A stretch of 64,000 nt of DNA from Ptychodera flava (lineage: Eukaryota): assembly GCF_041260155.1 (NCBI RefSeq), contig NC_091937.1, forward strand, positions 6,640,626-6,704,625, in the 5' to 3' direction. A model generated the notes under the pieces. The model did no database searches. It was not told where the DNA came from and worked only from the letters and a program-made list of their open reading frames with translations. Shown one piece after another: positions 25,038-64,000 of the stretch (position 1 is the first letter of the stretch; the number at the start of each line of letters is the position of its first letter). The position numbers and the translations under genes are program-made.

Positions 25038-25186
25038 GTAGGAATATTTTTCCAAAGTTGTCAAACATTGCTTTAAAAAAATGCAGCCATTGTGTGATGG
25101 CTTAGAAAGTAATAGCCAATTGGTTGTTTTTAAGATAAAGTGTGGAAGACAAATTTACTAAATGCTGAAATCTTATTTTCCTGCAG

Positions 25187-26166: not shown

Positions 26167-26350
26167 TACAAGTGCTAAGTACAGTTTTGTCAGTGAGGTC
26201 AGGGGAACCCGCTTTATGCTGGTCAGTAGAGTTGAACTGGGGCAATGTAAAGATCTGTACAAATCCGATGCAGACATGATAGCTCCTCCCAATGGATACA
26301 ACAGTGTGCACGGCGTCAAGGGAACAGACCAACAACCATCAGATTTCAAG
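26167..26350 (+). CDS. PARP4: PARP4-like exon 10 (catalytic): STSAKYSFVSEVRGTRFMLVSRVELGQCKDLYKSDADMIAPPNGYNSVHGVKGTDQQPSDFK
   Basis: Acceptor tctctgcatttcAG and donor AAG|GTAAGA. Human: LSTSIKYSHPGETDGTRLLLICDVALGKCMDLHEKDFSLTEAPPGYDSVHGVSQTASVTTDFE. Confidence 0.9.
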
Positions 26351-26372
26351 GTAAGAGTGGAAATATCCATTT

Positions 26373-28743: not shown

Positions 28744-28951
28744 GATGATGAGTATGTAGTGTATAACACAAACCAGCAGATGATGCGATATTTAGTTGAA
28801 TTTACAGTTCCTGGTGATGTCATCAAATCAGTGCCTTCTGCAGTGACACAACAAAGTAGAACCAGTGAGACTACTTCTTCAGATGATGAATCTGATTCTG
28901 AAAGTAGCATTGATGATTCTACTTCAGATGTCAGTGATGATTCTGGAATTG
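28744..28951 (+). CDS. PARP4: PARP4-like exon 11 (catalytic C-terminal end plus acidic Ser/Asp-rich linker): DDEYVVYNTNQQMMRYLVEFTVPGDVIKSVPSAVTQQSRTSETTSSDDESDSESSIDDSTSDVSDDSGI
   Basis: Acceptor tctactgcttgtgtttcAG and donor G|GTAAGA. Human: DDEFVVYKTNQVKMKYIIKFSMPGDQIK. Confidence 0.85.
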
Positions 28952-31138: not shown

Positions 31139-31269
31139 ACTTGAATGATGTCATGAATGTGACTGACCCTATGTCAAAGGTTAAACCTGGCTTGATTTCA
31201 ACAAGTGACACACCGGTACCCTTGAAGTCTGTTCATGTGAGGGCTAAACTGATGGATCTGGTTGCACAG
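31139..31269 (+). CDS. PARP4: PARP4-like exon 12: DLNDVMNVTDPMSKVKPGLISTSDTPVPLKSVHVRAKLMDLVAQ
   Basis: Acceptor tctctttatgtctgtcAG and donor CAG|GTAAGT. Human: LQDASGNLVPLEDVHIKGRIIDTVAQ, the start of the VIT domain. Confidence 0.8.
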
Positions 31270-32169
31270 GTAAGTTTTTTACAATGGAACAATTCAACTG
31301 AGGATTATTATAATGGATTTACTGTGAGCAAAGTTAGTCAGGTCAGACATCTTCAAGTATGTTGCAGGGCTAGGATCACTTTACATCATTGTTACTGGTC
31401 TTTGAGACCACAAAATACTGAACGGATTTGCAAATCTTTGGCATGTACTGATGGCTCCATCTACCACACAACAATTTCCAAATGTTTACAGAATCAGTTC
31501 AGCTCACTTTAATAAGAGATTAAATATCCATATATGGATAATGAAAATCTCTCAAACTACAAGAAGTGGAAATGATGATTCTAGATTATAATCGATGATG
31601 GGTGTGAAAGGGTGTAGAAGGCTTTGACATTATCAGCTGGTAAACTGTTCCAAGTGTTGTTCATATGTGGACTAAATGAAAACCTTTTCTAGTCAGCCGA
31701 GACAAAGGCTTGAACACCAATTTCAAGGCATATACTCAGGTTATTGCTTTCTTCATCTGAAATGAAAGGCTAAATAGGTCGATAATGATACAGGTATCAT
31801 TACTGAAAAATGGTGGAATTGTAAGGCATATATACTTTGAACATATTTTTGTATTTAACAATTTTGTCAAAGTTGTCTAAGTTGTTAGACACAAATTTCT
31901 GTCAGACTCAATTTTAGCTGCATATTGCAATTCAACAAGCAGACAGCTGAAACTCTGAGTTGCACCAATAAAGACAGGTGCAAGACAGAAAAATGTCTCT
32001 GTTGTTTACATGATTTTTGTTTTTGCAATAATTTTTTATTGAAAAAAGACCAAAGAATTTAACAACGAGGTTATAGAAAAAAATATAATATATCTCTACA
32101 TGATGATTTAATAAATAACTTTTCTTCTTACATATCAACATTAAAAATTTTCGTCCCCTTCCTTCGCAG

Positions 32170-32388
32170 GTCATCGTTATGCAAGCATACTTCAATGAAA
32201 GTAAGGACCCAATAGAGGCAAAATATGTCTTTCCGTTGGATACTATGGCAGCAGTGTGCGGCTTTGAAGCATTCATAAACGGCAAACATATCATTGGTCA
32301 AGTCAAAGAAAAGGAAACAGCACACAAAGAATACAAGGAAGCCATAAGTAAAGGGCATGGAGCATACCTCATGGATGAAGAAACTCCA
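32170..32388 (+). CDS. PARP4: PARP4-like exon 13 (VIT domain): VIVMQAYFNESKDPIEAKYVFPLDTMAAVCGFEAFINGKHIIGQVKEKETAHKEYKEAISKGHGAYLMDEETP
   Basis: Acceptor tcgtccccttccttcgcAG and donor CCA|GTAAGT. It is near-identical to human VIVFQTYTNKSHVPIEAKYIFPLDDKAAVCGFEAFINGKHIVGEIKEKEEAQQEYLEAVTQGHGAYLM. Confidence 0.9.
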
Positions 32389-32807
32389 GTAAGTTAGGGC
32401 GTCTGAATACTCTGCTTGTCTTTAATAGGGTGTCTGAAACTCTGCTTGCCTTTACTCTTGACAGATAGCTTGTATCTTCATTTATGCTACGTTAAAATGT
32501 AGCTGTGTGTCTCATAGTTTATGTGTCAGTGTGCCTGTCTGTCAGCATTAACACTTTCTAGCGCTTTGTACAAAATCTGTATATCTTTCATTCGCTCTCT
32601 CTTTCCTCTTCAGTCTCTCTGTCTCTGTGCTTTTCTCTTTGTGAAAAGTCATCCATTGTAAGTCTTTCTTCCTTTACCAAGTGGGCAGAACCACAAGAAA
32701 AATATTATTACATGATTGAGTTGATGTCCAATGGATAGACATTTAAGAAATTACATAATATGACCTATCAGAGTATGTAATGTAATATTATATGTATCAT
32801 TAAGGTA

Positions 32808-33155
32808 GTATTACCTCAAAAGTGAAAGACTTAAACTTTTGCCCAAACTTTACTCAAGAAACTTTCAACCATTCTCTTAAGCAATCAAGAACAAAAATAA
32901 CGAGTCCCTCTGCAAAGTTTGGAACTAGGAAACAAATTATCCAACAATTAGTAATACCGGTATCTGCAACTCAAAATGGCTGCCATCCCTGCATAAACTC
33001 TATGGGGCATGAACATTTTTGATTTCAAGAAAATTATGACAGTGAAAATTTTCTTACAGCTTTAAAGTGAACCACCACAAGTGATAGATTAGAATAGGAT
33101 TGAAAAACCTTCAGACTCTCAATCTGTCCCAGACGCATGCATTCAACCTTAATTA
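32808..33155 (+). mobile_element. SINE-like family copy (plus), ending about 45 bp upstream of the exon 14 acceptor
   Basis: Head agtgaaagacttaaacttttgcccaaactttactcaa, core caaaatggctgccatccctgcataaactctatggg. Confidence 0.7.
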
Positions 33156-33199
33156 TTCGGCTGACTACAATTTTGTTCATTTTCATCCTCTGCAACTAG

Positions 33200-33405
33200 G
33201 ATGTTTTCACAGTGAGTGTTGGAAACCTACCACCAATGGCAACGGTCCTGATCAAGATTACATATGTTACAGAACTCAGTGTGGATGGAGATAACATCTT
33301 GTTTCAGCTGCCAGGAAGTGTTGCTCCCTGGAAAAAAGACTCAGCACTTTCTCAAGAAACTCAGACAGATGTGAAAACTGTGAAGGTAGAGAAGGAAGGA
33401 CAAGG
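33200..33405 (+). CDS. PARP4: PARP4-like exon 14 (VIT): DVFTVSVGNLPPMATVLIKITYVTELSVDGDNILFQLPGSVAPWKKDSALSQETQTDVKTVKVEKEGQ(gg)
   Basis: Acceptor tttcatcctctgcaactAG and donor GG|GTAAGA. Human: DVFTVSVGNLPPKAKVLIKITYITELSILGTVGVFFMPATVAPWQQDKALNENLQD. Confidence 0.9.
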
Positions 33406-34995
33406 GTAAGAATTCAATAAATTTATTTAGCATTATGTTCCATATCAAAATGCACATATACTCACTTTTACAGTCCTTAGGGTATTGTTTAATTTTATTT
33501 TATATTCCTCCCCATTATACACTTTTTGTCCCAAAAAAATTGATGGTAGACAATTGATATCAGTACTGACTCTGTTTGACTAGTTCAAAAGTTATTGTCT
33601 TTGTAAAATTGTCTTTGTAACTGTCAGTTGTAAAAAAAAAATTGTATGACCATATTTTGAGCAAAGAACACGTTTGTGTGTCATTATTTATATCCATGAT
33701 GAAAGGACTAAATTAAAAATCGTCACAATAAAGTATTTTACTCCTTCAAGACAAAGTAAACTTTTGTTTAGTGTAGGTTAATCACAATGTTTTCCAAATA
33801 ATCGGTGTGAATTTTTTCATGAATAGTTAGCAGAACTTCTTAATTCAGAATGTAGTTGTGGGTTTCATGCGCTGTGAAGTCCAAAAACCATCCACTTAGG
33901 CAGAATTTTTTTTTATCTTTTATTAAAATATATGCTTCAAAAAACAAAACGTTTGCATTAACATCAAGTTCGTATTCAAATAGCAAGTTAATTACATTTA
34001 TAATAGGACTGTATGAATTTCATTGGATATTTGTACATTTCAGAGTAAAGACTGTATTTAGTTCTACAAGTGAGCTCATATTTTAGTAGACCACCAATTG
34101 CAATATTTTTCTCCATTTGCCAATACTTGTGAATAGTCCATTTTCCGATCAGTATAAGAAAATTAACAAAGTTTTCATCATCTTGAGAAAAATTATTCAT
34201 ACAACAATAAAGTACAATGTGTTTTTCTTTTATGTACATTGGCGTTTTCAAAAGTTTACTAAGAATACATTCTATATTATTCCAAACAACTTTAGCAATT
34301 TGACATCATAAAAATTTGTGTTCGAGGGTATCTACCTGCTTACACACTTTACAATCCATTGACGTTCTCTTGTTCCAAAAGTAGAGAAATTTATTACATG
34401 GAATAATCCGTTACATGGAATAATCCACCCAGGCAGAATTGTAAATCGCATTTTGAAATTCAGGCACAAGTTCCAACCATAATAGTATGATGACATGTGT
34501 AGTTGTCACCATATGGTGATTGGTTGGGAGTGAGTTTTGCCGTAACAATGAGTGTGAATATGGTAGTGATGAGAATTTCTGACCAATCACAAACAAGCTT
34601 ACAATGATGGATTTCTAGTGGAACCAGTACCTTTTATTACATATCACTGTGGCATCACAGGGTAGTTTCAGTTCCCTTTCTTGATCATCTTAACAATTTC
34701 ACCACCCGACTATGGTTTAGCCCGGTGAAACCCATTGTTACCAAAGATGATTGTTGACCTTTAACTTGAAAATGGGGTGGAAAGGTTACCAATTATCTGC
34801 TCACACTTTAAAATCAAGAACTCAATGCAAGCATGTGGTAATGGGTTGATAGACACAAAATATCAATGCTAGATCCCAGAATGTTGTAATCTGTGGTATA
34901 CTGAACATTAAATTGAATCTCCACAAAACACAGAAACTGTTCCAAAACATACACAGGTGTGGAAACTTCAATTTTGCATTGATATTTCTCAACAG

Positions 34996-35077
34996 GGATC
35001 TGAGCATCCAAGCTTCTGTTGAGATGCCATTTGACATCAGAACAATAGAATCACCCACTCATGAAATCAACATCAAG
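34996..35077 (+). CDS. PARP4: PARP4-like exon 15: (G)DLSIQASVEMPFDIRTIESPTHEINIK
   Basis: Acceptor atatttctcaacAG and donor AAG|GTATTT. Human: QSFSLTMSIEMPYVIEFIFSDTHELKQK. Confidence 0.8.
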
Positions 35078-35170
35078 GTATTTGATTTATATGCCATTTT
35101 CTTGTGTTTTTCAATAGATTTTGAAGCAAATTTAATAGCTACATGAGAAAGTTTTCTACAAAGTTACGGT

Positions 35171-35501
35171 AGTTTGTGCCTCAAAATGAAGACTTAAGCT
35201 TTTGTCAGGCTCTCCTCAAGCAAACTGTCAACCATTCTCTTTCAAAATCAAGAATAGAAATTGGGTGTCACCATGCAAAGTTTGGTATTAGAGAAACAAG
35301 TTATCTTCCATCAAATTGGCTGCCATCCCCGTATTTACTCTATGGGGAAAACAAAATTTCTGATTTTCACAAAACTAAGCTGGTGAAAACTTTATTTAAT
35401 CCATAAGTTTCCACATGAGCCTCCTCGAGTGGCAGGCCAAAAGAATTATTTTGAAATTTTTAGAGTCTGAATATCTTTCCCAGAGGCACATTCTACCTTA
35501 A
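35171..35501 (+). mobile_element. SINE-like family copy (plus)
   Basis: gtgcctcaaaatgaagacttaagcttttg ... ggctgccatccccgtatttactctatgggg ... cacattctaccttaa. Confidence 0.75.
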
Positions 35502-35861
35502 AGCTCCACTAGAGTAACTCTTGATGTATTTTTAATCCTTTATTTGTCCTGCACGTAGAGTACAGTTTCTCATTTCTACTCCAAAAGTCATGTGTAAGTG
35601 CTTTGTGTTCAACAATACAACTCAGCCTGGATATGAGTAATATGCGATGTCACTGGTATTGTTATCATTGTGAATTGTAATCACAACTTTAATTCATTTT
35701 TCCAGATTCATACAAAATGACTTTAATAATGAATCCAACAAAAATGTTTTTGCACTTAGAAATAGACATCTTCCAGTACGTAATTTGAATATTTTAATGA
35801 CACATTATTTTAATGCGGATTCCGAGTGTCATCTGACCTTTGACCTGACTATGTCTCACAG

Positions 35862-35999
35862 CGCACTGCCAGCAAAGCTGTCATTGAACTTGAGAAGAAC
35901 TCGACCATGGGCGATGGTTTCCAGCTGTTGATTGGACTTGCTGAGATCCATGTCCCCAGGATGTGGGTTGAAAAACATCCAGATAAGACTGATAGTCAG
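35862..35999 (+). CDS. PARP4: PARP4-like exon 16: RTASKAVIELEKNSTMGDGFQLLIGLAEIHVPRMWVEKHPDKTDSQ
   Basis: Acceptor tgactatgtctcacAG and donor CAG|GTAAAA. Human: RTDCKAVISTMEGSSLDSSGFSLHIGLSAAYLPRMWVEKHPEKESE. Confidence 0.9.
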
Positions 36000-36861
36000 G
36001 TAAAATGTTGTATTGAAGAGGAAATCAATTTAGAATTGGATGAAATGGCTGGATCATGTACTTGCATTGTATAGATATCAGCAGAATGAGCCATTGCTAT
36101 CAAATGAAGATACAGCTTTATTGTCTTCTATGGCAAAGCTGGACCACTTGAAATGCAATGGGGGGGGGGGGGATGAAAGCAATCTTACTTTCGTCACACT
36201 GAAAGTAGTTTTCATACTGTCAAATTTTGGTAAAATTACAATTTTTTTTGCAAAAGTCCTTTGAGTAGGAGAGGGATACATACTGTATATTAACCTATCT
36301 ATGAAGGGTTATCAGTTTTCTTAGCTTGACCAGTTGATTGGCAAATATGTACTAGTTATGTATTGCACAGTAGTGAGAGTATGATAAAGAATTGGTTGAA
36401 CATCAACCAAACAAGTGGTAGTCACATTGGACTGACTTTGATGCTTGTCTTGGGGAGACAACAAATTATAAGCATTTGCTGTATCCCTGTGATCATGTTC
36501 AAATCGTGCACAGGTAGTTAGGCCGTCTTTTTACATGCCATATCTAGTACATGTATACATGCAGCAATGGGGACATAGGATAGCAGAGAGTCCATATTTA
36601 TGTTTAGATAATTATGTACATGTATTTGTACCGTTATCTGTGTGTGTTTGTCCATTTCGTGCTGAGTTAGTATTCAGTGATTGTAGTGGGTATGTGTCAC
36701 TTTGCTGAATAATCACCCACTTACAGTATTTTGTATCTCAGTGTCTTCCCATGGTATATTCACTCATTACCACTTAAAGGCGGAGCTTACATTTTACTTG
36801 TCAAGATATGTCATAAATAACACTAACATTGTACCATTGGTTGTATTATTTTCCAACACAG

Positions 36862-37048
36862 GCGTGTATGTTGACATTCTACGCTGAGTTTGAAGCAGAC
36901 AGCATAAATGGTTATGAGGTGGTCTTTTTCTTGGATTTGTCAAATTCAATGCAAGGAAATTCACTCACAATGGCAAAGAAGATACTTATGTTGTCGTTGC
37001 ATCACCTACCGGAATGCTGTACCTTTAATATTGTAATCTTTGGCTCAA
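36862..37048 (+). CDS. PARP4: PARP4-like exon 17 (vWA domain start, MIDAS-like DxSxS): ACMLTFYAEFEADSINGYEVVFFLDLSNSMQGNSLTMAKKILMLSLHHLPECCTFNIVIFGS
   Basis: Acceptor ttgtattattttccaacacAG and donor A|GTAAGT. Human: ACMLVFQPDLDVDL...EVIICLDCSSSMEGVTFLQAKQIALHALSLVGEKQKVNIIQFGT. Confidence 0.9.
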
Positions 37049-37390
37049 GTAAGTTGTTGCAGCTTGGCTTATAAACTTTTCTGCTCTCAACAAAGCAGGT
37101 TTTATCAAAAAAAGTTACTCTCTGCTGCTGTTACGGTCTTTAGTCTTTAAATTTCTCTCCACAATACATTTCATAATATGAGATGCCAGTGGTGAGACAG
37201 TACAAGCTTGCCTTACTGAGGATATTTGCATGAAGGCATGCTGTGTATTCTGTGGTGTGTTGGCACCTGGAGTGATCACGAAGAAACGAAATACAGGAGT
37301 AAAGCTTTCAGAAATGTGATATTTTGTATTATTAAAAAGTACATTAAGCGTTGAAATCTTCCCGGCCGAAAGATGTTTCTTTTTTTAAGG

Positions 37391-37741
37391 TGTATGCACC
37401 TCGAAAGTGAAAGACTTAAACTTTTGCTCTAACTTTCCTCAAGGAATCTTTTAATCATTCTCTTTCAAAATCAAGAATAAAAATAGGGGGTCACCGTGCA
37501 AATTTTGGTACTAGAGAAACAAATAACCCAAGATTTACCGATATTAGAAATTCAAAATGGCCACCATCCCTGTGTTAACTCTATGGAGAAAAATAAAATT
37601 TTCGAATTTCGAAAAAGTAAGCCGGTGAAAAGTTTTCTTTCACCAAGAGCTTTAAAATGAACCCCATATGTGGTATATCAGAAGAGCATTGTAAAAGTTT
37701 GAGAGTCCGAACGTCTGTCCCCGAGGTGCGTTCTACCTTAA
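37391..37741 (+). mobile_element. SINE-like family copy (plus)
   Basis: Full-length copy: cacctcgaaagtgaaagacttaaac ... gccaccatccctgtgttaactctatgg ... gtgcgttctacctta. Confidence 0.75.
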
Positions 37742-38000
37742 GTATAATAATAATAGCTTGCATACCGTCATTTTCGTTTTGCTTATAAGATACTTGTTGT
37801 TTACAAACAAAAGTAGTTTGGGGCACAAGAGCTCATTAACATAAGATTATTGTATAATGTTTTCTGTATTGCACTGCAGTGCAAATACCAATTGTACGTG
37901 CACTATTAAAAAGTACAGTGAGCGTTGAAATCTTGCAGACCGAAAGATGTCTCTTTCTTTAAGTAGTATAATAATAGCTTGCATACCGTCATTTTTGTTA

Positions 38001-39290
38001 GCTACTATAGACTATAGTCTATAGAAGCTATGGGATGGGTACCGTCCGGCGTCCGTCGTCAGTCTGTATGTATGTATGTATGTATGTATGTATGTATGTA
38101 TGTCCGTTTGTGAGGCGTCCGTCCACTCAAATATCTTGAGAACCGCAGTACTTACTGATTTGATATTTGTTGTGTAGATGAAAAATACGATTTTGAAACT
38201 ATTTTTTTTAACTTTTTGATATTGTTGAAAATAGGCAAATTAATGCCAAAAAAGGTGTTTTTGGTAAAAAATCTTCTTCTTCATAACCGCTGGTCAGACA
38301 GCTTTGTTATTGGTATACAGGTCCCTAGGGGTAACCCAACTTAGACTTGTTCAAATTGTGATGAAATATGCAAATCTGTATTTTTAAGGAATTTTTTGTC
38401 ATTTTTGGTCAAAATTTGACTTACATTGTATGTAATTCTTGTACTGTATAAACCCTATCAATTCACCCAGAAAAAAATAATTAATATGATTTTAAATAAT
38501 TGAATTAATTAGGAAATCATCAAAGGCAAAATAATTTTAGTGTAGAATTATCAGAAAGTTCAACTTTTTGACGTTTGACAGTTCATAGTGAAATGCTTAC
38601 CATCTTAGAGGATTAAAACATGTAAAGGCAACTTTCCTGAATCCCAACTTTGACATATTCTGAACCGTCATTTATTGTGCCCTGTATGTTATCTCAAAGA
38701 AATTGCTCAAAATAGTCAATAGAGATAGAGATAGAGAAAGTTCTAATTTCCATTTATGGTTGACTTGGTAAGGATAAAATAAAATTACTTTTTGAGGAAA
38801 AAAATAGAGTGGTCAATTAAAAGAGTGGTCAAAGTGATAGGGTTTTTATGGTAAAGCTGGGCTGTACAAAGATTCCTCATGTGCTATTTATAGCAATTAT
38901 GCAATCTGTGTAAACAGTGCAATGAAAGTGTAACATGATTCCTTATAATGCTTTTGATGACCTTGAACTTCTTAAGTTTCAAACCTTTGTCTCTTCAGTG
39001 TGCTTTCTCTGAGTATGTACAGTCTCAACTTATTAAACAGAACTTACAATGTTAATCAAAGATATCCACCTTCTTCATCAATACATGTGTCACAAAAGGT
39101 TATTCTCTACATAACTCAACAGAGCTCTGTCAACTGTTGAGTTGCTTGTTCTTTCAAAACCGCTGGTCAGACAGCTTTAATATTTATTTACTTGTCCGTA
39201 GGATGACCTTAGTGAGATAATTTCATACAGTAAGGAAATACTTAATTTTGTATCCATGTCTATAGTAGCTTCAGGGACTTTGGCCCTATT
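38001..39290. mobile_element. family A copy in PARP4 intron 17: head, (TGTA)n at 38065-38101, tandem units, about 650 bp of unrelated internal sequence, then the conserved tail at 39050-39140
   Basis: ccgtccggcgtccgtcgtcagtc(tgta)n ... ggtaaaaaatcttcttcttcataaccgctggtcagacagctttgttattggtatacagg ... tail aaagatatccaccttcttcatcaatacatgtgtcacaaaaggttattctctacataactcaacagagctc. Confidence 0.55.
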
Positions 39291-40092
39291 CGTTTTTCTT
39301 GTAAGATACTTTTTGTTTACAATGAAATGTAGTCTGGGTCACAAGAGCTCATTAACATAAGATTATTGTATAATGTTTTCTGTATTACACTGCAGTGCAA
39401 ATACCAATTGTACATGCACTCCAATGCAAGTAAACTGTGGTAATACACATATTTTCACCAACCAACAAAATCTTAAACATTCCACCCAGAAATGATATTA
39501 TGAACATGCATTTCCTATACTTTAAACAGAAAACCAACAAGAACCAACTTTTCATTCTCAAAAAAGTCATGAATGTAGATAGAACTACTAATAGAGTAAT
39601 TATTAAACATTTTGTTGATATTCTTTCGGCAAATGAAATATAACCAGTAATGAGTATAATGTGAAGTCTCAAACATTTTTCATATGTTGGCTAGAGCGTG
39701 ATGAATATCTTCAGGAAGCATGTTTTTTACTGTACAATGTTACAGTTATTAGGGTACTGATACCTACACAGCAGAAGTAATTTGTCTGGTGTATTTGACT
39801 ACCGAAATGATGAAAAATCTGTGAGCTAAAAATTTACTGCTTTCAAGTCATTTGTCCAAATTTCCTCATGCAGAGATAGTCCCTTGCCACCGCAGATCGA
39901 CAATTGAGTTGTTCTAAAATTTGCCAGGAAAGTCAAGTATGTCTCTATCAGCACTCATTTACTCAAATTGTATGTAGATGAACATTAGACATAGTAGACG
40001 TAAGCTCAAGGTGGAGAAAGTTTACTTTTCCCCCTGTAGTAATGGTACTTTTAAATTCATTATCTCATTCCTTGCAAATTGCCTTTCTACAG

Positions 40093-40360
40093 CATTTGAT
40101 GAACTGTTCCCAGACAGCGTTCCAAAAACCAAGGAGAACGCTAGGAAAGCCCAGCAGTTTGTCCGGTCGGCTCGCATCCGAGCCAACATGGGCAACACAG
40201 ACGTTTGGCGACCCCTTCTGTTATTTCTTCAGTTCAGCCCTTCTACCGGCCAACGCAATGTGTTCCTGATTTCTGATGGGCATATCAACAATGAGAAAAT
40301 GACACTGGATAAAATTCATCAGAACAATCAACATACCAGAGTCTTTACCCTTGGTGTCAG
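40093..40360 (+). CDS. PARP4: PARP4-like exon 18 (vWA): TFDELFPDSVPKTKENARKAQQFVRSARIRANMGNTDVWRPLLLFLQFSPSTGQRNVFLISDGHINNEKMTLDKIHQNNQHTRVFTLGV
   Basis: Acceptor tcattccttgcaaattgcctttctacAG and donor AG|GTAAAA. Human: GYKELFSYPKHITSNTMAAEFIMSATPTMGNTDFWKTLRYLSLLYPARGSRNILLVSDGHLQDESLTLQLVKRSRPHTRLFACGIG. Confidence 0.9.
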
Positions 40361-40744
40361 GTAAAACACTTGCTCCCATCAATTTATTTTTTATCTTGTT
40401 TATTTGATTCTGTCGTTTTGGAATATCCCGTGCCATTTGTCCACTTGTGACTCATGTATTGCGAGAGTACTGTACTGATACTGCTGTAGACTAGCTTGCC
40501 CTCACGTTGCATTTAGACTATACTATATGCTTTTAATTCTACCCCACACTGCCTGTAGTCTACCCTAACATTGCCTTTTGAGGTACATCTCAATATCTCA
40601 TGTACTGCAGAATTCTACAAGCAAAAGTGAATTCATTCAAATTGATGACCATCCCCTGACCCTGAGACTTGGTATTGACATCAATTTCCAAAGAATTCAT
40701 TCATGTGATGATTTGTGATATATTGTTTGAAGTTCCTCATTAAG

Positions 40745-41073
40745 GTAAAATGTAAAAATTTGCTCTAATTTCCCTAAATGAAACTTTCAACCATATTCTT
40801 ACCAATCAAGAATAAAATCAGGAGTCACTATGTAAAGTTTGGTAGTAGAGGGTGAACCAACAACCTGACATTTACCAATATTTGAAATTCAAAATGGCTG
40901 CCATTCCTAGCTGTGTTAACCTTATGAGGAAAAATAAAATCTTTGATTTAAAAAAAAACTGCAATAGCGAAATTTTTCTTACTGTAAGAGCTTTAAAAGA
41001 AACACCCACAAGAGGTAGATCACAAAATTGTAAAAATTTGAGTCTGATATCTGTCCCCAAGGCTCGTTGAAAG
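40745..41073 (+). mobile_element. SINE-like family copy (plus)
   Basis: aaaatggctgccattcctagctgtgttaaccttatgagg ... ctgtccccaaggctcgtt. Confidence 0.7.
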
Positions 41074-41182
41074 ACTGATCATTACAAAGCCAACATTTTA
41101 TTAAATTAAATGTAAGCAGTGTATAGGGCTTTCAGATTGTAAACAATTGACAAACAATATCTTCTCTTTTAATTTTTCACAG

Positions 41183-41282
41183 CTCAACTGCAAACCGTCA
41201 TCTGCTGCAGTCCATGGCCAGGGTTGGAGCTGGTGCCTATGAATACTTTGATAATCAGACAAAATCAAAGTGGGAGAGAAAA
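41183..41282 (+). CDS. PARP4: PARP4-like exon 19 (vWA end): (S)STANRHLLQSMARVGAGAYEYFDNQTKSKWERK
   Basis: Acceptor ttctcttttaatttttcacAG and donor AAA|GTAAGA. Human: STANRHVLRILSQCGAGVFEYFNAKSKHSWRKQ. Confidence 0.9.
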
Positions 41283-41900: not shown

Positions 41901-42071
41901 GTGAAATCCCAACTCCAGAAAGCAGCGCAACCTGCTTTGACATCTGTCAGTGTTGCCTGGCAACAGTTTGATAATGATGCCCCCAAGCCAATTCAGGCAC
42001 CCAATCAAATTGTCTCATTGTTCAGTGGGTCAAGGCAGGTGGTCTATGGTTTTGTACCATTCTGTACACAG
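41901..42071 (+). CDS. PARP4: PARP4-like exon 20: VKSQLQKAAQPALTSVSVAWQQFDNDAPKPIQAPNQIVSLFSGSRQVVYGFVPFCTQ
   Basis: Acceptor tctgtgatgttttacttcAG and donor CAG|GTAAAA. Human: IEDQMTRLCSPSCHSVSVKWQQLNPDVPEALQAPAQVPSLFLNDRLLVYGFIPHCTQ. Confidence 0.9.
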
Positions 42072-42790: not shown

Positions 42791-42871
42791 GCCACACTGA
42801 AAGCAGAGATTGACCATAAAGACGTTTCTACAATGGTGTCTACAGCTGATCTTAACATCACCCAAGGAAAG
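42791..42871 (+). CDS. PARP4: PARP4-like exon 21: ATLKAEIDHKDVSTMVSTADLNITQGK
   Basis: Acceptor ctttctgatatttcAG and donor AAG|GTAATG. Human: ATLCALIQEKEFRTMVSTTELQKTTG. Confidence 0.85.
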
Positions 42872-43154: not shown

Positions 43155-43337
43155 ATCCTTCACCAACTGACAGCACGCGCCATTATCAGAGACTGGGAAG
43201 ATGGGACATTAAATGTGAACAGAACTGAGCATGAGGTGATGAAAAGTGAGCAGAAGGCATACATCATCAATATCAGCAAAGAATATTCCATTGTGACACA
43301 GTTTACAAGCTTTGTTGCCATAGAAACTAGAGAGCCG
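43155..43337 (+). CDS. PARP4: PARP4-like exon 22: ILHQLTARAIIRDWEDGTLNVNRTEHEVMKSEQKAYIINISKEYSIVTQFTSFVAIETREP
   Basis: Acceptor cttggtctttacccaAG and donor CCG|GTGAGT. Human: MIHKLAARALIRDYEDGILHENETSHEMKKQTLKSLIIKLSKENSLITQFTSFVAVEKRDE. Confidence 0.9.
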
Positions 43338-43814: not shown

Positions 43815-43931
43815 GCTGAAAAGTTACTGGGGCCATGGGGTCCCAGCATAGAAGAACTGGTTTCAAAGGAGAATGTAGACAGTCTGCCATATATGGGATT
43901 TGAAGAGAAAGTCAGAAAAGAAAAAGTGGAG
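43815..43931 (+). CDS. PARP4: PARP4-like exon 23: AEKLLGPWGPSIEELVSKENVDSLPYMGFEEKVRKEKVE
   Basis: Acceptor atgttaaatttctcAG and donor GAG|GTAAGA. Human: ...IPKVSELIAKEDVDFLPYMSWQGEPQEAV. This is the last exon with clear PARP4 homology. Confidence 0.75.
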
Positions 43932-46718: not shown

Positions 46719-46868
46719 TTGAGTGGTGAAGAACTACTCAAGGACTTACTGGAGAAAGCAGAAACAAACCAACGTCTGTCCATCATTCTGCAAGCAGAGA
46801 GAGGCTATCAAGAAGCATATGATGTGGCTGTGAAAGACTTGCCGACAACTCATCCACTCAGACTCAAA
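46719..46868 (+). CDS. exon with a 14-3-3-like segment, in phase (0) with exon 23: LSGEELLKDLLEKAETNQRLSIILQAERGYQEAYDVAVKDLPTTHPLRLK
   Basis: Acceptor ttctttctctgtttgaatgtgaatAG, with an in-frame stop immediately upstream in the intron. Donor AAA|GTAAGC. AYDVAVKDLPTTHPLRL matches the 14-3-3 helix AY(K/Q)(A/E)A..I...(L/M)(P/Q)PTHPIRLG. Confidence 0.5.
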
Positions 46869-47303
46869 GTAAGCATTCTGTTCCCATCTTTCTGCTGTGT
46901 TTCCTCAGATCCAGTATTGTCTATTGCATTTCTTTTGAGACTGGTCCATTTCATTTCTGAATGGGGTAGAACCGACCTTCGTAAGGCTGCAGCACTGGTA
47001 TCAAAGACTTGCCATCCAAATGTAAGAGACACAAAATATGCCAGTAACAGTGTACATGGGGTATTTTGGTGGAGATCAGATTTACTTTACGTTTCATTTG
47101 GTGTACTTGACTCATAAATAAGAATGGAAAGTTATTCTATATCATTTTACAATCAAATAAGCACAACTCATATAATGTCACTAATATTTTTGTCAAAAAT
47201 GATGCTCAAGTTATCTCCTCTACGATCTTATTAGCTCCATGATTTTCTACTTTCCTTCATCAAGTTTTGTTACTGTTTTTGATATCCATCCTTTTACTTT
47301 CAG

Positions 47304-47388
47304 GCTGCCTGTTCACTTGCCAAGTTTTGTTTGGATGTTCAAGGCGACAAAGACAAAGCAGAATCCATCGCAAAACAGGCTTTTGACG
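47304..47388 (+). CDS. 14-3-3-like segment continued: AACSLAKFCLDVQGDKDKAESIAKQAFD(g)
   Basis: Acceptor catccttttactttcAG and donor G|GTAAGC. ACSLAK is an exact match to the 14-3-3 helix EKACSLAKTAFDEAIAEL. The preceding LALNFSVFYYEILNSPE helix is missing. Confidence 0.5.
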
Positions 47389-48052
47389 GTAAGCACTTGA
47401 TGACATACATTTAATTTTTCACCGAAAAACATTATTTTTCACACATTTCTTTGTAAAGGGATAAAGTGACAATCACTTCATTCTATTTGTCATTGCATTC
47501 GAGGCCAGCTAATGGACATTTTGTAACATATTCAAAGAGTGGTCAAAACTATACCTTCAACTCTTTATAAAGTCAGAACTCATTTTGAAATGGCATAATT
47601 TCTGATAAAATGAATATGCAATTAAGCTATCGCTGACTTTGACCTGTTCATCCCTGGTTCCTTGTAAACAGGTCTGTGCTCTCTATTGATAACAGTGGGT
47701 TTGGACCAAACCATGGTGGTGAAAGGGTTAATGGTGTAAAATCATGAGCTGACAGTGCAGTCCCTTTTATGCAACAGTCATACCACCCTGATACATCAAC
47801 ATTGTTTGAACTCACAGTTAATTAAAAAGTAATTATTAAAGATTATCTCAGCATGTGAATATCGTGAAACACTTGGATATTGCCCCGTCTGTTTATGTCT
47901 GTTTATCCTTCGTGAAAATGGTACTACATACTGTGTTTTACTTTTACTACAATATGTATGTTGCTAATAACCTTCATGTGTTGAAAAGAGAATAAAAAAT
48001 GTTGATTCGAATTTTATGATGGAGTTTACATGGTTGAAAGTTTACTTTACAG

Positions 48053-48128
48053 ACAGCATATCTGAGTTGGATACATTGAGTGAAGATAGTTATAAGGATT
48101 CAACTCTGTACATGCAAGAACTGAGAGA
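48053..48128 (+). CDS. 14-3-3-like segment continued: (D)[24 protein letters not shown](ga)
   Basis: Acceptor gtttactttacAG and donor GA|GTAAGT. Phase 1 in and phase 2 out. It matches the 14-3-3 C-terminal helix [26 protein letters not shown] at 17 of 24 residues. Confidence 0.55.
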
Positions 48129-50695: not shown

Positions 50696-51570
50696 GTAAG
50701 TTTAGTGAATGACTTCCATGCAATTCAATGTGAAGTTATCTAATATTGATAATATCATCTAATTATAAGAGTGCAGGGGAATGGAGCATGGGTTGATGTG
50801 AAAGAGAACTTTTTTGCGGCCTCTAAAATGTTCAAAAGTGTACTCCCCTACTTTTATCACTTTGGGCACAAATTATCAATTATTGGTGTTCAGTGAAAAT
50901 CGAAGGCAGATGTGAATCTGCAGATCGTATTGTCACAAATAAATCTTATAAGCGTGTGTTCATGACTTATGACTTTCAAATTCAATTGAGTTCCTATAAA
51001 TATACATAATCAACAATGTTATTACAGGCATAGCATGTGCATATTTGAAAAAGCTTGAACAAGACAATATGGCTGCCACAACTCTGTAAAAATAACCAGA
51101 AATGGTGGACATAAAGAAGGAGAATCTTGTCAGAGTCACGGAGACATGATGAGATCCGTTGAAACACATGGCAACAGATATTCTCTACAGTGATATTCTA
51201 TTCTCTCTTTCCCTTGCAATATAACAAGTTTTGAAAAAAATTGCAGCAATAAAATGAACATATGCATATTTTATTAATGAGCATTGTTTCAGTATTGAAA
51301 TTGTATGGTAATGATACATGAAGTGATTATTGATAATTAAGTGTGTATAATGATGGTAACAATGCAGATAATTCACGTACCTGGCATGTTGCATGGTATA
51401 AAAATGGAGTGAAAATCATTACAAGTAATTGCCAATTCTGTCAAAAGTGAATGTTGTCACGATGCAGGTAAGGGATGTGTCATTTTGGAATTCAGAGAAA
51501 GTTGAGGAAATTTTGATTTGAATTAATCATTGTGTAGCTCATAGGTCTTTAAACTTTGTGTATGATGCAG

Positions 51571-51857
51571 ATTATGAAGATGAGGTATATGGCATGCTCT
51601 TCATGGACAATGGCTCATTTATGACTGATGTTGGATTTGCTGGCTCTCCACAGCCTAAGGCAACCTTTCCAACAGTTGTTGGCCGTCCCCGTCACCAAGG
51701 TGTCATGGTTGGTATGGGTCAGAAAGACAGCTATGTGGGATTTGAAGCAGTTGGTGGGAAACCAAAGCGTTTCCTGACAGAGGAAAAGTCCGTCTTAGCT
51801 CTAATAAGACGTAAAGCAGGTGAATGCAACGTTGTCAATGGTTCTACTCTGGAATAA
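51571..51857 (+). CDS. terminal exon with an actin-derived segment: (D)[94 protein letters not shown]
   Basis: Acceptor tttgtgtatgatgcAG. [20 protein letters not shown] is 20/20 identical to actin residues 37-56. DNGS, GFAG and FP..VGRP match the actin N-terminus [29 protein letters not shown]. The sequence diverges after codon about 60. Stop TAA at 51855-51857. Confidence 0.55.
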
Positions 51858-51858
51858 A
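51853..51858 (+). promoter_or_regulatory. AATAAA polyadenylation signal overlapping the stop codon (ggAATAAAat)
   Basis: Canonical hexamer seen directly. It is the first one after the terminal CDS. Confidence 0.5.
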
Positions 51859-52428
51859 ATAGACGCAATGTGTTTCCCATACTCAATATGTCCAAAAGAT
51901 CATGTGATGCCGGTAAAAACAAACCGATTTGTATAAATGCATATAGAAATGCACGTATTTCTGGACGTGTTTGTGAATGTGGTTTGTTTGTACCATGGTC
52001 CATTCAAATTCCGGGTCTAACCTATCCTGGTGCATGCTATGTTTTAAACCAGTTTAAGTGCAATCAGTGCGACTCTCTTGCAAAGTGTTTATCTGGTAGA
52101 AGAATGGGTATTATTCTATGTTGAAGAGGCTGAACATAAGTTATGCAAAGTAGTTGTTGAAGTTGGTAGCTAAGTAGGTATTGAAAGCTAGATGATTTAC
52201 AATGTCATTCTCAGTACTTAATGAAGAGTACCGGGGTATAAGTGCATGCACTCATGCATATTTGACACTGACAAAATCACAAGAACATGATAGTTCTGTT
52301 TGCTTTTAAATCACCAGATAAAGTGCATGGGTGCATGATTTATGAATAATCCTGATTAACAATGTGTCATTTTGATTGCATATGCATACTTTAGCAATTA
52401 AAAGACCAATAATTGATATTTTTTGTCA

Positions 52429-52464
<36 letters not shown>

Positions 52465-52497
52465 CTTTTTTTTTCTTTCTTTCTTTCTTTCTTTCTT
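52429..52497. repeat. compound microsatellite (AC)12(AT)6 T-run (CTTT)5
   Basis: Seen directly. Confidence 0.9.
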
Positions 52498-53104
52498 ATT
52501 CTTCAAAATTTATGTTGAAATACAAACTATTTTCACTTTGTTTTGTTAACAAAGTCATTCTTATCTAGACTAAATATTAGTTGTCAACATTAACATTGGA
52601 TATAATGTACAGGTGGGCTGTGCCAACAACTTGTACACCAGACACTGGGGCATATTTGAGACAAGAACAAGAGCTATTTTATCAACAGATCAAAAATACT
52701 GCTCAGGGTTATATGTATCGAAGATCATAGCTGATGATGCTTTCAATAACACAAGCTATGATATTGCATATCAAGTAGTAGATATACGATATTGATAATA
52801 TTGATGTGGATTGTTTTCAGCAGATATTGACTTTGAAAAGGCTATGTGTGCAAGATTACTAGGAAACACCCAATCAAGGCCATCACCAGTAAGTAATCTC
52901 ATCAATTCCATATATGCCATATTTGCCTTTCCAAAATTCAGCATCAAATGTTTTGATTTTGGAGCCATGAAAGTACTTTTTATGTTTTGATTTTGACTTT
53001 TTCCAAGGTAAAAGCTTTGTTAATGTTTACTAAATATGCAAGGGAAAACAGAAAAAATGAGATGTCTTTTATTATCTTCTCAAGGAAAAATAGGCATTTT
53101 AATT

Positions 53105-53600
53105 TTTCTGGTAGACTTAACTCAAAGACTGGCAGCCATAATTTCTGTGTGAACACAATGGGGAAAATTTGAATTACTAATTTGTGTTCAACAATTAGAA
53201 GACACTGAAACTTCACTTACTTCAAGAGCTTCAAAATGAGGCCACACAAGTGGTAGATCAGAAAAGTATTATAAAATTTTGTGAGTCCAAATATCTGTCA
53301 CCAAAATGCATTCTACCATTAGCTCTTTGTGAGTCCAAATATCTCTCACCAAAGTGCATTCTACCATTAGCTCTTTGTGAGTCCAAATATCTCTCACCAA
53401 AGTGCATTCTACCATTAGCTCTTTGTGAGTCCAAATATCTCTCACCAAAGTGCATTCTACCATTAGCTCTTTGTGAGTCCAAATATCTCTCACCAAAATG
53501 CATTCTACCATTAGCTCTTTGTGAGTCCAAATATCTCTCACCAAAATGCATTCTACCATTAGCTCGTTTTGTAAGACCTTTGAATGATGCTGTATCACAA
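53105..53600 (+). mobile_element. SINE-like family copy (plus) whose 3' tail has been tandemly amplified (see repeat 53281-53568)
   Basis: Core gactggcagccataatttctgtgtgaacacaatgggg, then six copies of the tail motif. Confidence 0.7.
53281..53568. repeat. 48-bp minisatellite, 6 copies (gtgagtccaaatatctctcaccaaagtgcattctaccattagctcttt)
   Basis: Exact period of 48 seen in the sequence. It explains track ORFs 53250-53635 on three frames with 16-aa peptide repeats. Confidence 0.9.
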
Positions 53601-54689
53601 TATATTGAAAACTTCTGACCTCCCTGTGGCAACAACTATATTTCTAGAAGGCAGTGGTTATCTAATGCTTACAGAGGAAATATCATGTATCTCCTGTGCT
53701 GGTAAAAACAGCACCAATTCTCGCTACCTGAAATAGCTTTTATCTTGTGCTGGGGCGGTGGGCAAACTACATGATATTGAAATGCATTGTGGGTAAAAAG
53801 TCAACCAACAAGAGTTTGAGATAGTGATCTCATAAATTCTTTGAACACAAATGTGTATCGTTTTAATGGCAAAAGTTTGGGTTTTTTTGTGGAACCACTA
53901 AACTCATTTACCTTGTCATCTTTTTAGGCATTACTGGCATTAAATTTCTGTATAACCTTAAACATAACATTTGTAATGTGTGTTTTATGTGTAGAAATCT
54001 GCCAAATGGTCAATTGCCTGAGACTTTTATGACCCACCTTCGTGGAAAAATCATTACCGAGAATTGAAGGGCACTTTTCATAAAGCAGCAGCATAATTGA
54101 TTCACTTTTATGTATTCCTCCTAGGCTGTCAGAGTGATCAAATGTACTTCAAACCTAGGTCCCTCATAAGGGACCATGTTAAAATATTGCATACAGTTGC
54201 AAAATTGCAAGCTGAATGTCGATCTGCATGTATAATGATTGTATATACCATCATTGGATAGGGTTTGGTGATTTTGTAAACACCAATGCCAAAAAGACTC
54301 TGCTATCTGTAAATATTGAAATAAACTTGGTGAAACAATCAGTAATTGGCCAATTATTACTCATGAATATTTATAACCTTCACAAACAGTGTGCGAAATT
54401 TAGAGAAAATAGCTTCAGGTCATAAGGACCTGCACCGAGCCAAAGCTTCTGGTCCTTACAGAAAACTGCCGGTCCTCAATAAAGGCACTTGTTAACGACC
54501 ATTAAAGTCAACTTCTCCACCAATACTATGCTTTCGAATGTTGTAATATTTAATTTTCGTGTCCTTTTATCAATAGAGTCAGCAAGTATTAACTCCAAAT
54601 GACTATTCACATAAATTGCAGAATAGGGTAAGTGAATGATCATGAAATATTCATCTACATGATCTGGAATCTGAAAAAGATCACAGTCC

Positions 54690-60289: not shown

Positions 60290-62400
60290 CATTTTAGTAG
60301 TGCATGTTTGACATGTTAGGTCGGAACTAACGTGACCAAAAAAGCCAAACTTGCAAAGCTATCGTGTATCGTGCAGACCCAACATATCCGCACCTATCGT
60401 TTCTAAAATGTCTAACGTGTATGTCAGGTCGGAACTAACGTGCCTAAAATGCCAAACGTGCAAACCTATCGTGTATCGTGCAGACCTAACGTTAATAACC
60501 TATGTCTAACATGTATAGCATTTTAGGGCGTACAAATTAATAAGTCCTATTCTATCATGCCAATCGTGCAAACCTATCGTGTATTGTGCACACCCAACAT
60601 GTATCCTATCGTGTATCGTGCAGACCTAACGTGTACGGACCTAAAGTGTCTAAAATGTCAAACGTGCATGTCATTTTAGGTTCTCAACATGGGTCAAGTC
60701 TATCATGCCAATCGTGCAAACCTATCGTGTAACGTGCCGACCTAACGTGTACGGAACTAACGTGTCTAAAATGTCTAACGTGTATATCATGACTGTACCA
60801 TTCAACTTATCTGGAGACCCTAAAATGACATACACTTTAGACATTTTAGACACGATAGGTTTGCATGATTGCCATGATAGCTCTTGACTCAATTAGAGAC
60901 CCTCATTGACATACACGTTTGACATTTTAGACACGTTAGCTCTGTCAACGTTAGGTCGGCACGTTATACGATATGTCTTATGATTGCCATGATACAATTC
61001 TACTTATCTTGAACCCTAAAATGACATACACTTTTGACGTCTATAGACACAATGTCTAACGTGTATGTCGTTTTAGGTTGTCAACATGAGTCAAAATCTA
61101 ACATGCCAATCGTGCAAACCTATCATGTATCGTGTAAACCTAACGTGTACGGACCTAACGTGTCGAAAATGTCTAACGTGTATGTCATTTTAGGTTCACA
61201 ACATGGGTCAAAATCTATCATGCCAATCGTGCAAACCTATCGTGTATCGTGCAAACCTAACATGGTCAGCACGTTACACGATAAGTTTGCACGATTAGTA
61301 TGATAGATTTTGTCTCAATTACATCCTAAAATGACATACACGTTAGACATTTTAGACACTTTAGCTCCATAAATCTTAGGTCAGCACCTTATACGATATG
61401 ACTCAAGATTCACGTGATGGCCTACAAACACGGTAGGAGACTAACTCTATCACGCCAATCGTGCAAACCTATCTTGTATCGTGCAAACCTAACGTGTACG
61501 GACCTAACGTGTCTAAAATGTCTAACGTGTATGTCATTTTAGGTTCTCCACATGGGTCAAAATCTAACATGCCAATCGTGCAAACCTATGGTGTATCGTG
61601 CACACCTAACGTGTACGGACCTAACGTGTCTAAAATGTCTAACGTGTATGTCATTTTAGGTTCTCAACATGAGTCAAAATCTATCATGCCAATCGTGCAA
61701 ACCTATCGTGTATCGTGCAAACCTAACGTGTACGGACCTAACGTGTCTAAAATGTCTAACGTGTATGTCATTTTAGGTTCTCCACATGAGTCAAAATCTA
61801 TTATGCCAATCATGCAAACCTATCGTGTATCGTGCACACCTAACGTGTATGGACCTAACGTGTCTAAAATGTCTAACGTGTATGTCATTTTAGGTTTTCA
61901 ACAGGACTCCAATTTCTATCATGCCAATCATGCAAACCTATCGTGTATCGTGCAAACCTAACGTGTACGGACCTAACGTGTCTAAAATGTCTAACGTGTA
62001 TGTCATTTTAGGTTCTCCACATGGGTCAAAATCTATCATGCCAATCGTGCAAACCTATCGTGTAACGTGCAGACCTAACGTGTACGGACCTAACGTGTCT
62101 AAAATGTCTAACATGTATGTCATTTTAGGTTTTCAACATCGGTCAAAATCTACCATGCCAATCGTGCAAACCTATCGTGTATCGTGCAAACCTAACGTGT
62201 ACGGACCTAACGTGTCTAAAATGTCTAACGTGTATGTCATTTTAGGTTCTCCACATGACTCCAATTTCTATCATGCCAATCATGCTAACCTATCGTGTAT
62301 CGTGCAAACCTAACGTGTACGGACCTAACGTGTCTAAAATGTCTAACGTGCAGACTTTTACAGTGTTTAGTCATGCACGTTTGTCCTACACGTTTGGGTT
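60290..62400. repeat. ~117-bp satellite array, about 17 units, with orientation-switched segments at 60800-61050 and 61290-61400
   Basis: Unit gtctaaaatgtctaacgtgtatgtcattttaggttctcaacatgggtcaaaatctatcatgccaatcgtgcaaacctatcgtgtatcgtgcaaacctaacgtgtacggacctaacgt. Regular period 61500-62340. Flanked by direct repeats gctcgctacctgtagaccatgcc at 60229 and 62487. Confidence 0.85.
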
Positions 62401-63332
62401 CTATAATGTACAATGGCATACAATTGCCCATAGCACGATAGCTTCAACAATGTGAAACGTGCATTTTTACCAACTACTGGCCATAGCTCGCTACCTGTAG
62501 ACCATGCCGTGTGAACAGGAAGAATGTTTGCTAGATTGTTTAAAAAAATACAAGAACTTTAACAGAAAAACCATGGGGAAGCATTACAAGACTCAATATC
62601 TTATTTCCATATTTAGCAACACAATATATTCATGTTCCTCAAAGCCCTTCAAATTTTTACATCGGCAGCATCACTTCGCAGGCGGAGAGCTGCAGCCATT
62701 TTTTGTTTACATTGTTTACCATCAAAATGCAAATATAGTTCGGGAATACTCCAAACCGATGACGTTTATAGTGCATATCTCGACATTTACTGTGAAATAT
62801 CACAGCTGATATTTTACGGTAAATGTCACTATCGTGAAGTGATATGGGCATGGGTATATGATAATATGACCTTGAATGACGAAATAAGAAAGCGTTTGTG
62901 TATAGCTGTTGAAAGCACCAGGAGTATAATTATTATAACACGCCACACACAAATTTTTTGCCAAGTTCATAAGAACAAGATCCATGATGAGAAAATGGAT
63001 AAAGCTAGCTACACTCTAGCTCAAAATATCAACTCAAGCTGGATTAAATATTTTCCTTTTTGCATTCTATTAGCATATCAATTAGAAAATATAAGTTCAA
63101 GCAGGGATGTTAATTTGTGTGCCAAGAATATTTTCAATGTCTCACCACAAAGAAATTATTACATCAACAACTGCTGTGGAGACCATTTACAATTCTTGTA
63201 CAGTGTGTGCATTTAAGGTAGTATGTGCCGCAAAAGTAAGACTCAAACCTTCCTCGAAGTATACATATGTCCTTGTGGGAAATTACAGTGCTCGATGCTA
63301 AAGCAGAGTGTTATGAATAATAATACAAAAAT

Positions 63333-63466: not shown

Positions 63467-63582
<116 letters not shown>

Positions 63583-64000
63583 CACATGAACTCGCCCGTA
63601 TCTCCACCTGTGTGACGTACACCAGCACAGATAAGAAATCCATATTACCGCTGTTGTACGTCATCAACCGGAACTTTTTTCCTGCAATGGTACCGTTCGT
63701 ACGTGCACATCGCGACACAGACCGATTTGTCGTGATCGATACCGTGCTCTCATGGCATTTTGACAAAAAGGTGACCCGATAAATCCAGATACGGAAACAG
63801 AGAAGGCATGCCCAACGAAATTTCGAGTCGCTAAAGCTTTACTATTCCCAAGAATCGAATGAGGATACCGTCGATCGTTTGACTCAGTAACGTCACGGCT
63901 CCAGTCGCAAGGCTCAATGTGGATATCGTAGTACCTGGCGATCGCCAAGCGACGTTGTACCTGGCGATCCCGGTTGGCGATAAACCCGAAAGATACACCT

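Follow-up and report, generated by a model that had tools for sequence, protein, structure and literature searches.

In the present study we analysed a window of 64,000 nucleotides from Ptychodera flava (NCBI RefSeq assembly GCF_041260155.1, contig NC_091937.1, positions 6,640,626 to 6,704,625 of the forward strand) and found that its segment at 13.15-51.86 kb on the plus strand is very probably a complete PARP4 (vault PARP)-like gene, whose last detectable coding exon (51545-51857) encodes an N-terminal piece of actin. All coordinates below are those of the window, meaning this whole stretch. An earlier note had described the stretch 51540-51860 as an actin fragment exonised at this locus. 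Its observation was largely correct, and its interpretation was right on the co-option and wrong on origin, age and splice acceptor. The identity of the actin exon, the gene model, its conservation and the selection acting on it are shown by the present analysis. The sequence comparisons indicate that the actin piece became a domain of PARP4 in ancient times and has been inherited with it since; it is not a recent local capture.

A tblastn search of human beta-actin against the window gave one significant match at 51579-51749 (+) with 38 of 57 residues identical (E 5e-19), and 21 consecutive residues (51678-51740, +) are identical to actin 35-55, which comprise the DNase I-binding loop (D-loop) and its flanks. 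This bears out the similarity that had been noticed before. No further actin segment was detected in the 64 kb at word size 2 and E 10, the remaining matches being chance. Combining tblastn, Pfam and homologue alignment, the homologous segment extends from 51597 to 51779 (+) and corresponds to actin residues of about 8-66, that is, beta-strands 1-3 of subdomain 1 and subdomain 2. It lies in an open frame of 111 codons (51522-51854, +). Pfam Actin scored 29-32 bits on the exon product and the spliced product (cut-off 27) over profile positions 7-54 of 410. As had been reported, the actin reading is lost beyond about codon 60: clear similarity stops at codon 57-60, and a weaker 'KRFLT' resembling actin 'KRGILT' extends it to about residue 66. 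The 'KPKRFLT' of the window is the degraded equivalent of the SKRGIL(S/T)L kept by the Nematostella and Hydra homologues. The AATAAA at 51853-51858 (+), read directly, contains the stop codon TAA at 51855-51857, so that the described overlap of the two is accurate.

Although residues of about 8-57 are 67% identical to canonical actin (PF00022), the window contains only some 60 of 375 residues: it has no subdomain 3 or 4 and no nucleotide cleft, and most of subdomain 1 is missing. A functional actin has a complete fold of four subdomains and about 375 residues, including the two phosphate-binding loops. The window lacks it, and the piece cannot form the actin fold. The earlier view that this is not a functional actin therefore holds, as does the view that no full-length actin gene or pseudogene continues at the locus (tblastn over 64 kb). 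In AlphaFold predictions from a shallow alignment the actin part was unstructured, with a predicted local distance difference test score (pLDDT) of about 50. An alignment of 70 sequences gave three beta-strands with pLDDT of about 82-86, a D-loop below 50 and a predicted template modelling score of 0.35. In neither prediction was the actin part globular.

The exon belongs to a gene whose domains follow one another as BRCT, PARP, VIT, vWA, a conserved post-vWA region, a 14-3-3-like C-terminal half-domain and the actin exon. BRCT, PARP catalytic, VIT and vWA are encoded in this order on one strand, which places the gene in the PARP4 family. The PARP4 of Branchiostoma lanceolatum (P0262; 1363 amino acids; Pfam BRCT-PARP-VIT-VWA-14-3-3, with the BRCT at residues 2-92) is collinear with the window in 23 tblastn pieces that begin with residue 1 at 13152 and end with residue 1328 at 48129, and the PARP4 fragments P0242, P0244 and P0260 map consistently within it. 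The closest PARP4 matches were those of Branchiostoma lanceolatum (65%), Anneissia japonica (62-67%) and Lingula (60%). The first exons with the BRCT region lie at 13152-14454 (P0262 residues 1-110, from tblastn high-scoring pairs), the PARP regulatory and catalytic exons at 22581-28833 (P0262 residues 310-593, collinear; also P0260, P0242 and P0244), the VIT exons at 31141-33418 (P0262 residues 619-807) and the vWA exons, placed by PARP4 mapping, at 34994-41282. All of them are on the plus strand and have approximate boundaries, except for the last vWA exon, which is defined at 41183-41282.

From this exon onwards, nine consecutive 3' exons (41183-41282 to 51545-51857) are joined by GT-AG junctions throughout, with the frame continuous to the TAA. 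The last vWA exon is followed on the same strand by four exons of the conserved post-vWA region (41901-42071, 42791-42871, 43155-43337 and 43815-43931), joined in frame and collinear with P0245, P0248, P0238 and P0262, and by three exons of the 14-3-3-like C-terminal half-domain (46719-46868, 47304-47388 and 48053-48128), recognised by tblastn with 14-3-3 zeta, by Pfam and by their in-frame joins. The actin-fragment exon comes last and encodes the end of a 14-3-3 helix, an acidic linker, actin residues of about 8-66, a 25-residue tail and the stop. A search with the PARP4 exons of the window also retrieved two continuous JGI open reading frames (ORFs) that are collinear with them: in P0248 the PARP4 post-vWA region runs into the 14-3-3-like half, and in P0245 it runs through a helical region into the actin N-terminus, each within one ORF. 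An interaction domain for the major vault protein (MVP) was not recognised in the window, where Pfam on the 3' part gave 14-3-3 and Actin only.

The 14-3-3-like part is attached in frame and directly to the PARP4 exon by the junction 43931|46719 (GT-AG, phase 0), and Pfam 14-3-3 scored 78 bits on the spliced product over profile positions 124-220 of 223. Compared with canonical 14-3-3 (PF00244), the stretch 46719-48128 and the start of the last exon encode matching helices, including a 22-residue stretch, whereas the N-terminal half with the dimer interface and the phosphopeptide-binding Lys/Arg/Tyr is absent. The window thus does not encode all nine helices of a functional dimeric 14-3-3. The junction 48128|51545 gives MQELRE|SLNFVYD, which aligns with 14-3-3 helix 9 MQLLRDNLTLWTSD. 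A confidently predicted helix runs through SLNFVYD in the AlphaFold model, in which the 14-3-3-like half has pLDDT above 90. Therefore, 'VYDAD' (51558-51572) ends the 14-3-3-like domain and is not a relic of the actin start MCDDD, as which these codons had previously been read. The end of helix 9, SLNFVYDA, and the acidic linker DYEDEVYGM together occupy 51546-51596 (+), as supported by alignment, predicted helix and homologue motifs. The homologues L002 and M. coruscus also have a 'VYD' motif upstream of the acidic linker, 'VYD' is likewise recorded for P0190, and Nematostella has a comparable 'D(D/E)VYGM'.

The acceptor of the actin-fragment exon is the AG at 51543-51544 (+), the sole AG in 51480-51620 that gives an open frame from the phase-2 donor 48128|gtaagt. 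Every other AG in this interval failed to do so, including the one at 51569-51570. The claim that the acceptor arose inside the former actin initiation region has to be given up, since the AG at 51569-51570 with the donor at 48128 hits a stop after one or two codons. Upstream of the exon, at 51462-51509 (+), we noticed an in-frame 'MQVRDVSFWNSEKVEE' that has one TGA before the exon and faintly resembles the helix-9 end 'MQLLRDNLTLWTAEGE' of Mytilus, and a consensus-like donor ATGCAG|gtaagg lies at 51467|51468. The similarity of 'MQVRDVSFWNSEKVEE' is too weak to interpret and may reflect either the vestige of an older exon end or chance.

The same module was found in other PARP4 proteins. A search with the spliced product of the window, together with Pfam and cluster look-ups, revealed full-length PARP4s with a Pfam Actin match limited to profile positions of about 2-67 and located after the vWA, namely Nematostella vectensis XP_032219397.2 (plus four isoforms), Hydra vulgaris XP_065649889.1, Magallana gigas K1PUC2 and Mytilus edulis CAG2205451.1. 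For Nematostella and Hydra the RefSeq isoforms include the actin fragment. Macrostomum lignano A0A1I8HY60 matched actin residues 4-63 by local phmmer (E 4.7e-13), Pfam Actin not being among its listed matches. Among 173 PARP4-like proteins searched by local phmmer, 13 had an actin match, always within actin residues of about 2-73, and vertebrate PARP4 was without the module. The PARP4s of Nematostella, Hydra, oyster, M. edulis and Macrostomum have the same domain order as the window, with a (14-3-3-like) part, an acidic linker and actin residues of about 5-70. In the window, too, the actin-derived domain is C-terminal to the 14-3-3 part and reaches no further than about residue 70. In all of them the D-loop is invariant and actin similarity goes no further than the end of subdomain 2. 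They differ in what surrounds the module: the ORF of the window stops 25 codons after the actin part, whereas in Nematostella, Hydra, Mytilus and oyster that part is followed by further sequence of Pro-rich, K/E-rich or Hsp70-like character. Moreover, a clear 14-3-3-like half is present in the window, whereas Nematostella has a degenerate one and the M. edulis model omits it.

Conservation is concentrated in the 21-residue D-loop stretch. In the PARP4-type fragments that cover it, a run of 17 residues, the next Y and the final G are invariant, and only the S (S/A/V) and the following V (V/I) vary; P0245 ends after RPRH and is therefore outside this comparison. The position of actin D56 is variable (W, F, K, N, Y, R or D), and several fragments keep EA.SKRGIL(S/T)L up to residue 68-70 or so, the end of actin subdomain 2. 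Three short proteins, P0003, P0001 (Logan) and P0002 (Tara), share a derived 'YVGFEA.G' after a perfect D-loop, P0003 being the 'actin, partial' of Mytilus galloprovincialis. A further protein of 338 amino acids, P0383, is built from the actin N-terminal fragment, repeated in tandem as about five or six degenerate copies, and has no PARP4 part.

The exon structure is also shared with Mytilus. In M. galloprovincialis (L001) the 14-3-3-like exons join in frame (AAG|GTAAGT ... ttttag|AT, phase 1) an exon with the acidic linker and the actin piece, and in M. coruscus (L006) and M. trossulus (L005) 14-3-3-like exons are likewise followed by an actin exon; among these three species the in-frame GT-AG junction was checked in the sequence for M. 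galloprovincialis only. In M. trossulus a called gene with a BRCT+PARP+VIT+VWA product of 2387 residues spans the whole locus, and within it the 14-3-3-like exons (CM071711.1, L005 10001-12378) are annotated as a nested same-strand gene for a '14-3-3 protein epsilon-like' of 208 residues. For the actin exon, the annotations of M. galloprovincialis and M. coruscus give 'actin, partial' or an unnamed protein. Alternative isoforms or annotation splits probably explain all these annotations, which serve as a warning that such exons are easily mis-called as partial actins or as separate '14-3-3 epsilon-like' genes.

The architecture itself has been described. Perina et al. reported PARP4-like proteins with VIT, vWA and an appended 14-3-3 in amoebae, lancelet, sea urchin and Capsaspora, ubiquitin-related domains on those of Acanthamoeba, and an additional C-terminal domain, e.g. 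actin, on some of them (Perina et al. 2014, DNA Repair 23:4, PMC4245714). It is therefore known as a domain cartoon (the 'third type' of their clade 5), to which the window adds another member. Functional work on the PARP4 actin module was not found in our literature search.

To estimate the selection on the module, we applied the Nei-Gojobori method to 53 aligned codons of the window and the Mytilus, L002 and L004 sequences. Synonymous change was saturated, with a proportion of synonymous differences (pS) of 0.71-0.80 overall and 0.5-0.92 in the D-loop half. The proportion of nonsynonymous differences (pN) was 0.02-0.11 in the D-loop half compared with 0.29-0.38 in the N-terminal half, and the ratio of nonsynonymous to synonymous rates (omega) was 0.02-0.05 for the D-loop half where the synonymous rate was measurable. 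Thus, the actin piece is under strong purifying selection, which is strongest on the D-loop. The low omega together with the saturated synonymous sites excludes both neutral decay and a recent capture. Since the same module occurs at the same place in the PARP4 of cnidarians, molluscs and a flatworm, it would predate Bilateria. What appeared to be a one-off exon capture thus turns out to exemplify a feature of the vault PARP that is old and conserved and whose function is unexplored.

These data bear on two other origins of the exon. The one proposed by the earlier note, that an actin gene fragment was captured here and recently exonised, with the acceptor arising in the former actin initiation region, agrees with the isolation of the fragment, as no other actin part occurs in the 64 kb, and with the superficial likeness of ttgtgtatgatgcagat to an actin start. 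Nevertheless, we regard it as highly improbable: the acceptor that it calls for shifts the frame into a stop, the codons for 'VYDAD' are part of the 14-3-3-like helix, synonymous change between lineages has reached saturation, and the module sits at the same PARP4 position in Cnidaria, Mollusca and Platyhelminthes. The last point also overturns the claim of a local exonisation. Slightly less credible still is the view that an actin pseudogene is decaying in the 3' flank of PARP4 and has left an unexpressed fragment whose frame happens to be open. The absence of a stable fold in the AlphaFold prediction of the actin part would fit such a fragment, but a pseudogene is expected to show neutral decay, frame disruptions and continuing homology, whereas here the frame is open over 111 codons with an in-frame canonical acceptor, omega (0.02-0.27) is far below 1 and the D-loop core is invariant across phyla. 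Besides, P0245 joins PARP4 to the actin fragment in a continuous ORF, and the RefSeq isoforms of Nematostella and Hydra contain it. An exon inherited with PARP4 accounts for these observations.

Whether this exon ends the gene is a separate question. The earlier note had called it a co-opted terminal exon; it is indeed a coding exon of another gene and probably the last one in the window, whereas its counterparts in Mytilus and Nematostella are internal exons. We consider a terminal position probable because the stop codon lies within AATAAA and the search for downstream exons was negative. Between 51.9 and 64 kb, a tblastx comparison with the downstream regions of Mytilus gave no match, inspection revealed no coding-like or Pro-rich ORF, and the post-actin tails of eight homologues gave chance matches only (tblastn), these tails being low in complexity, fast-evolving and hence hard to detect by similarity. 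The alternative is an internal or alternatively spliced exon whose phase-1 donor, 51808|gtaaag or 51817|gtgaat, leads to fast-evolving Pro-rich or K/E-rich exons within or beyond the window. In Mytilus the actin exon ends in GKP|gt (phase 1) and is followed by a K/E-rich exon and about 370 Pro-rich residues, in Nematostella at least 272 residues follow the fragment, L002 and L004 have phase-1 GT sites just past the conserved part, and the nested 14-3-3-like annotation of M. trossulus hints at alternative isoforms. Against this stand the position of the stop within AATAAA and the lack of coding character and of similarity to homologue tails in 51.9-64 kb, where such tails would be hard to detect. 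We therefore regard an internal exon as possible, though rather unlikely.

Several points weigh against the reading of the exon as the conserved, functional end of a complete PARP4-like gene. The junction 48128^51545 and the use of the AATAAA are what we infer from in-frame canonical splice sites and from homologues. A protein search retrieved no database protein with the exact exon, the best matches being fragments with 55-66% identity. In Branchiostoma P0262, the closest full-length homologue, the annotated end comes after the 14-3-3 part and the actin fragment is missing. The phase-1 GT sites at 51809 and 51818 leave room for an exon that is sometimes internal. The module is absent from vertebrate PARP4, so it is not essential for vault association. 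Finally, the AlphaFold confidence for the D-loop is low, and the binding proposed below is something we infer.

With regard to function, the actin piece is most likely a flexible interaction module that displays the pointed-face/D-loop surface of actin, as suggested by its sequence. The argument is that a D-loop kept letter-perfect in a non-actin protein would meet the same partner or partners that constrain the D-loop in actin. The most obvious such partners are the barbed-face hydrophobic cleft of a neighbouring actin, binders of the DNase I type and D-loop-modifying enzymes. The D-loop of the PARP4 tail may dock in the barbed-face hydrophobic cleft of another actin molecule or, alternatively, may engage D-loop-binding or D-loop-modifying proteins. 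Such binding would anchor PARP4 or the vault on actin or on D-loop partners, or would direct the ADP-ribosyltransferase of PARP4 to them. Mammalian vaults have been reported at the tips of actin filaments (PMC2150576), which are colocalisation data only. As mammalian PARP4 is without the module, this observation is loosely relevant and weak support at best. The D-loop appears to have been kept letter-perfect in a non-actin enzyme since before the split of cnidarians and bilaterians. A constraint of this kind would imply a specific partner and make the module a testable handle on the long-open question of PARP4 and vault function.

Comparable arrangements are known from other systems. WH2, thymosin-beta and RPEL are actin-cleft-binding motifs, and plant nucleotide-binding leucine-rich repeat (NLR) immune receptors carry integrated decoy domains. 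The former may resemble the exon as short flexible elements that could fill the barbed-face cleft of actin, and the latter in that a piece of a host target is embedded in another protein as bait. None of them is related in sequence to the exon of the window, and the analogy would be functional only. In the primate POTE-actin genes (POTEE/F/I/J), too, an unrelated gene has at its 3' end an in-frame fusion with coding sequence derived from actin. However, they contain a recently retroposed and essentially full-length beta-actin, whereas the piece in the window is N-terminal, comprises about 60 residues, is ancient and is shared across phyla.

Actin is not the only highly conserved protein represented in PARP4 tails. 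In addition to the 13 proteins with an actin N-terminus, the 173 PARP4-like proteins included 20 with 14-3-3, 15 with ubiquitin and two with calmodulin (local phmmer). A Pfam fragment of the Hsp70 substrate-binding domain was found in P0312 (151.8 bits) and in the PARP4 of Magallana gigas (K1PUC2, 45.7 bits). As further observations, ubiquitin-like domains ending in LRGG occur in the gastropods Biomphalaria, Plakobranchus and Bulinus, among others, and Mytilus edulis CAG2205447.1 and one ENA protein have pieces of calmodulin or EF-hands. In P0312, ubiquitin, actin(1-70) and the Hsp70 fragment follow one another, and tails with such pieces were seen among P0249, P0269, P0270, P0300, P0306, P0312 and P0266.

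One could read the PARP4 tails of animals and amoebae as arrays of hub-protein fragments, in which the actin exon would serve as an integrated bait or decoy that lures pathogen effectors or host enzymes to the vault or PARP4. Recruited attackers or binders of the D-loop would then be ADP-ribosylated or sequestered; alternatively, the pieces would be in-cis pseudo-substrates of the ADP-ribosyltransferase. If true, this would give the vault a function in innate immune sensing. The variety of hub-protein pieces across the tails (14-3-3, ubiquitin, actin, calmodulin and Hsp70) speaks for it. Moreover, bacterial toxins have 14-3-3, actin, calmodulin and ubiquitin as their classic cofactors or targets in the host. 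It is also in line with findings on vertebrate PARP4, in which the region between the vWA and the MVP-binding domain is fast-evolving under positive selection and has been proposed as a host-pathogen interface (Daugherty et al. 2014, PMC4038475). Nevertheless, we consider a bait to be quite unlikely. The argument for it is purely correlative, and the actin fragment is extremely conserved and not fast-evolving. Fragments of highly conserved proteins are the easiest to recognise, so the pattern may partly be a detection bias, and some of the database models could be fused gene predictions. A module that binds the partners of the actin D-loop remains the explanation that we prefer.

Besides the PARP4-like gene, the window contains an ORF at 353-844 (+), upstream of PARP4, with an akirin-like C-terminal motif, which may be an akirin gene. 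Microsatellites of (CA)n, (TA)n and (TTTC)n lie at 52430-52500, and a minisatellite of about 48 bp with at least six copies occupies 53250-53618, where the translation in one frame is a series of CESKYLSPKCILPLAL repeats and several frames are open on both strands. A long (TA)n-like run is present at 63480-63600. A long tandem array at about 60336-62452 has a unit of about 135 bp that translates as repeats of VQTYRVSCKPNVYGPNVSKMSNVYVILGSPH.SKSIMPI and is probably satellite and not coding sequence.

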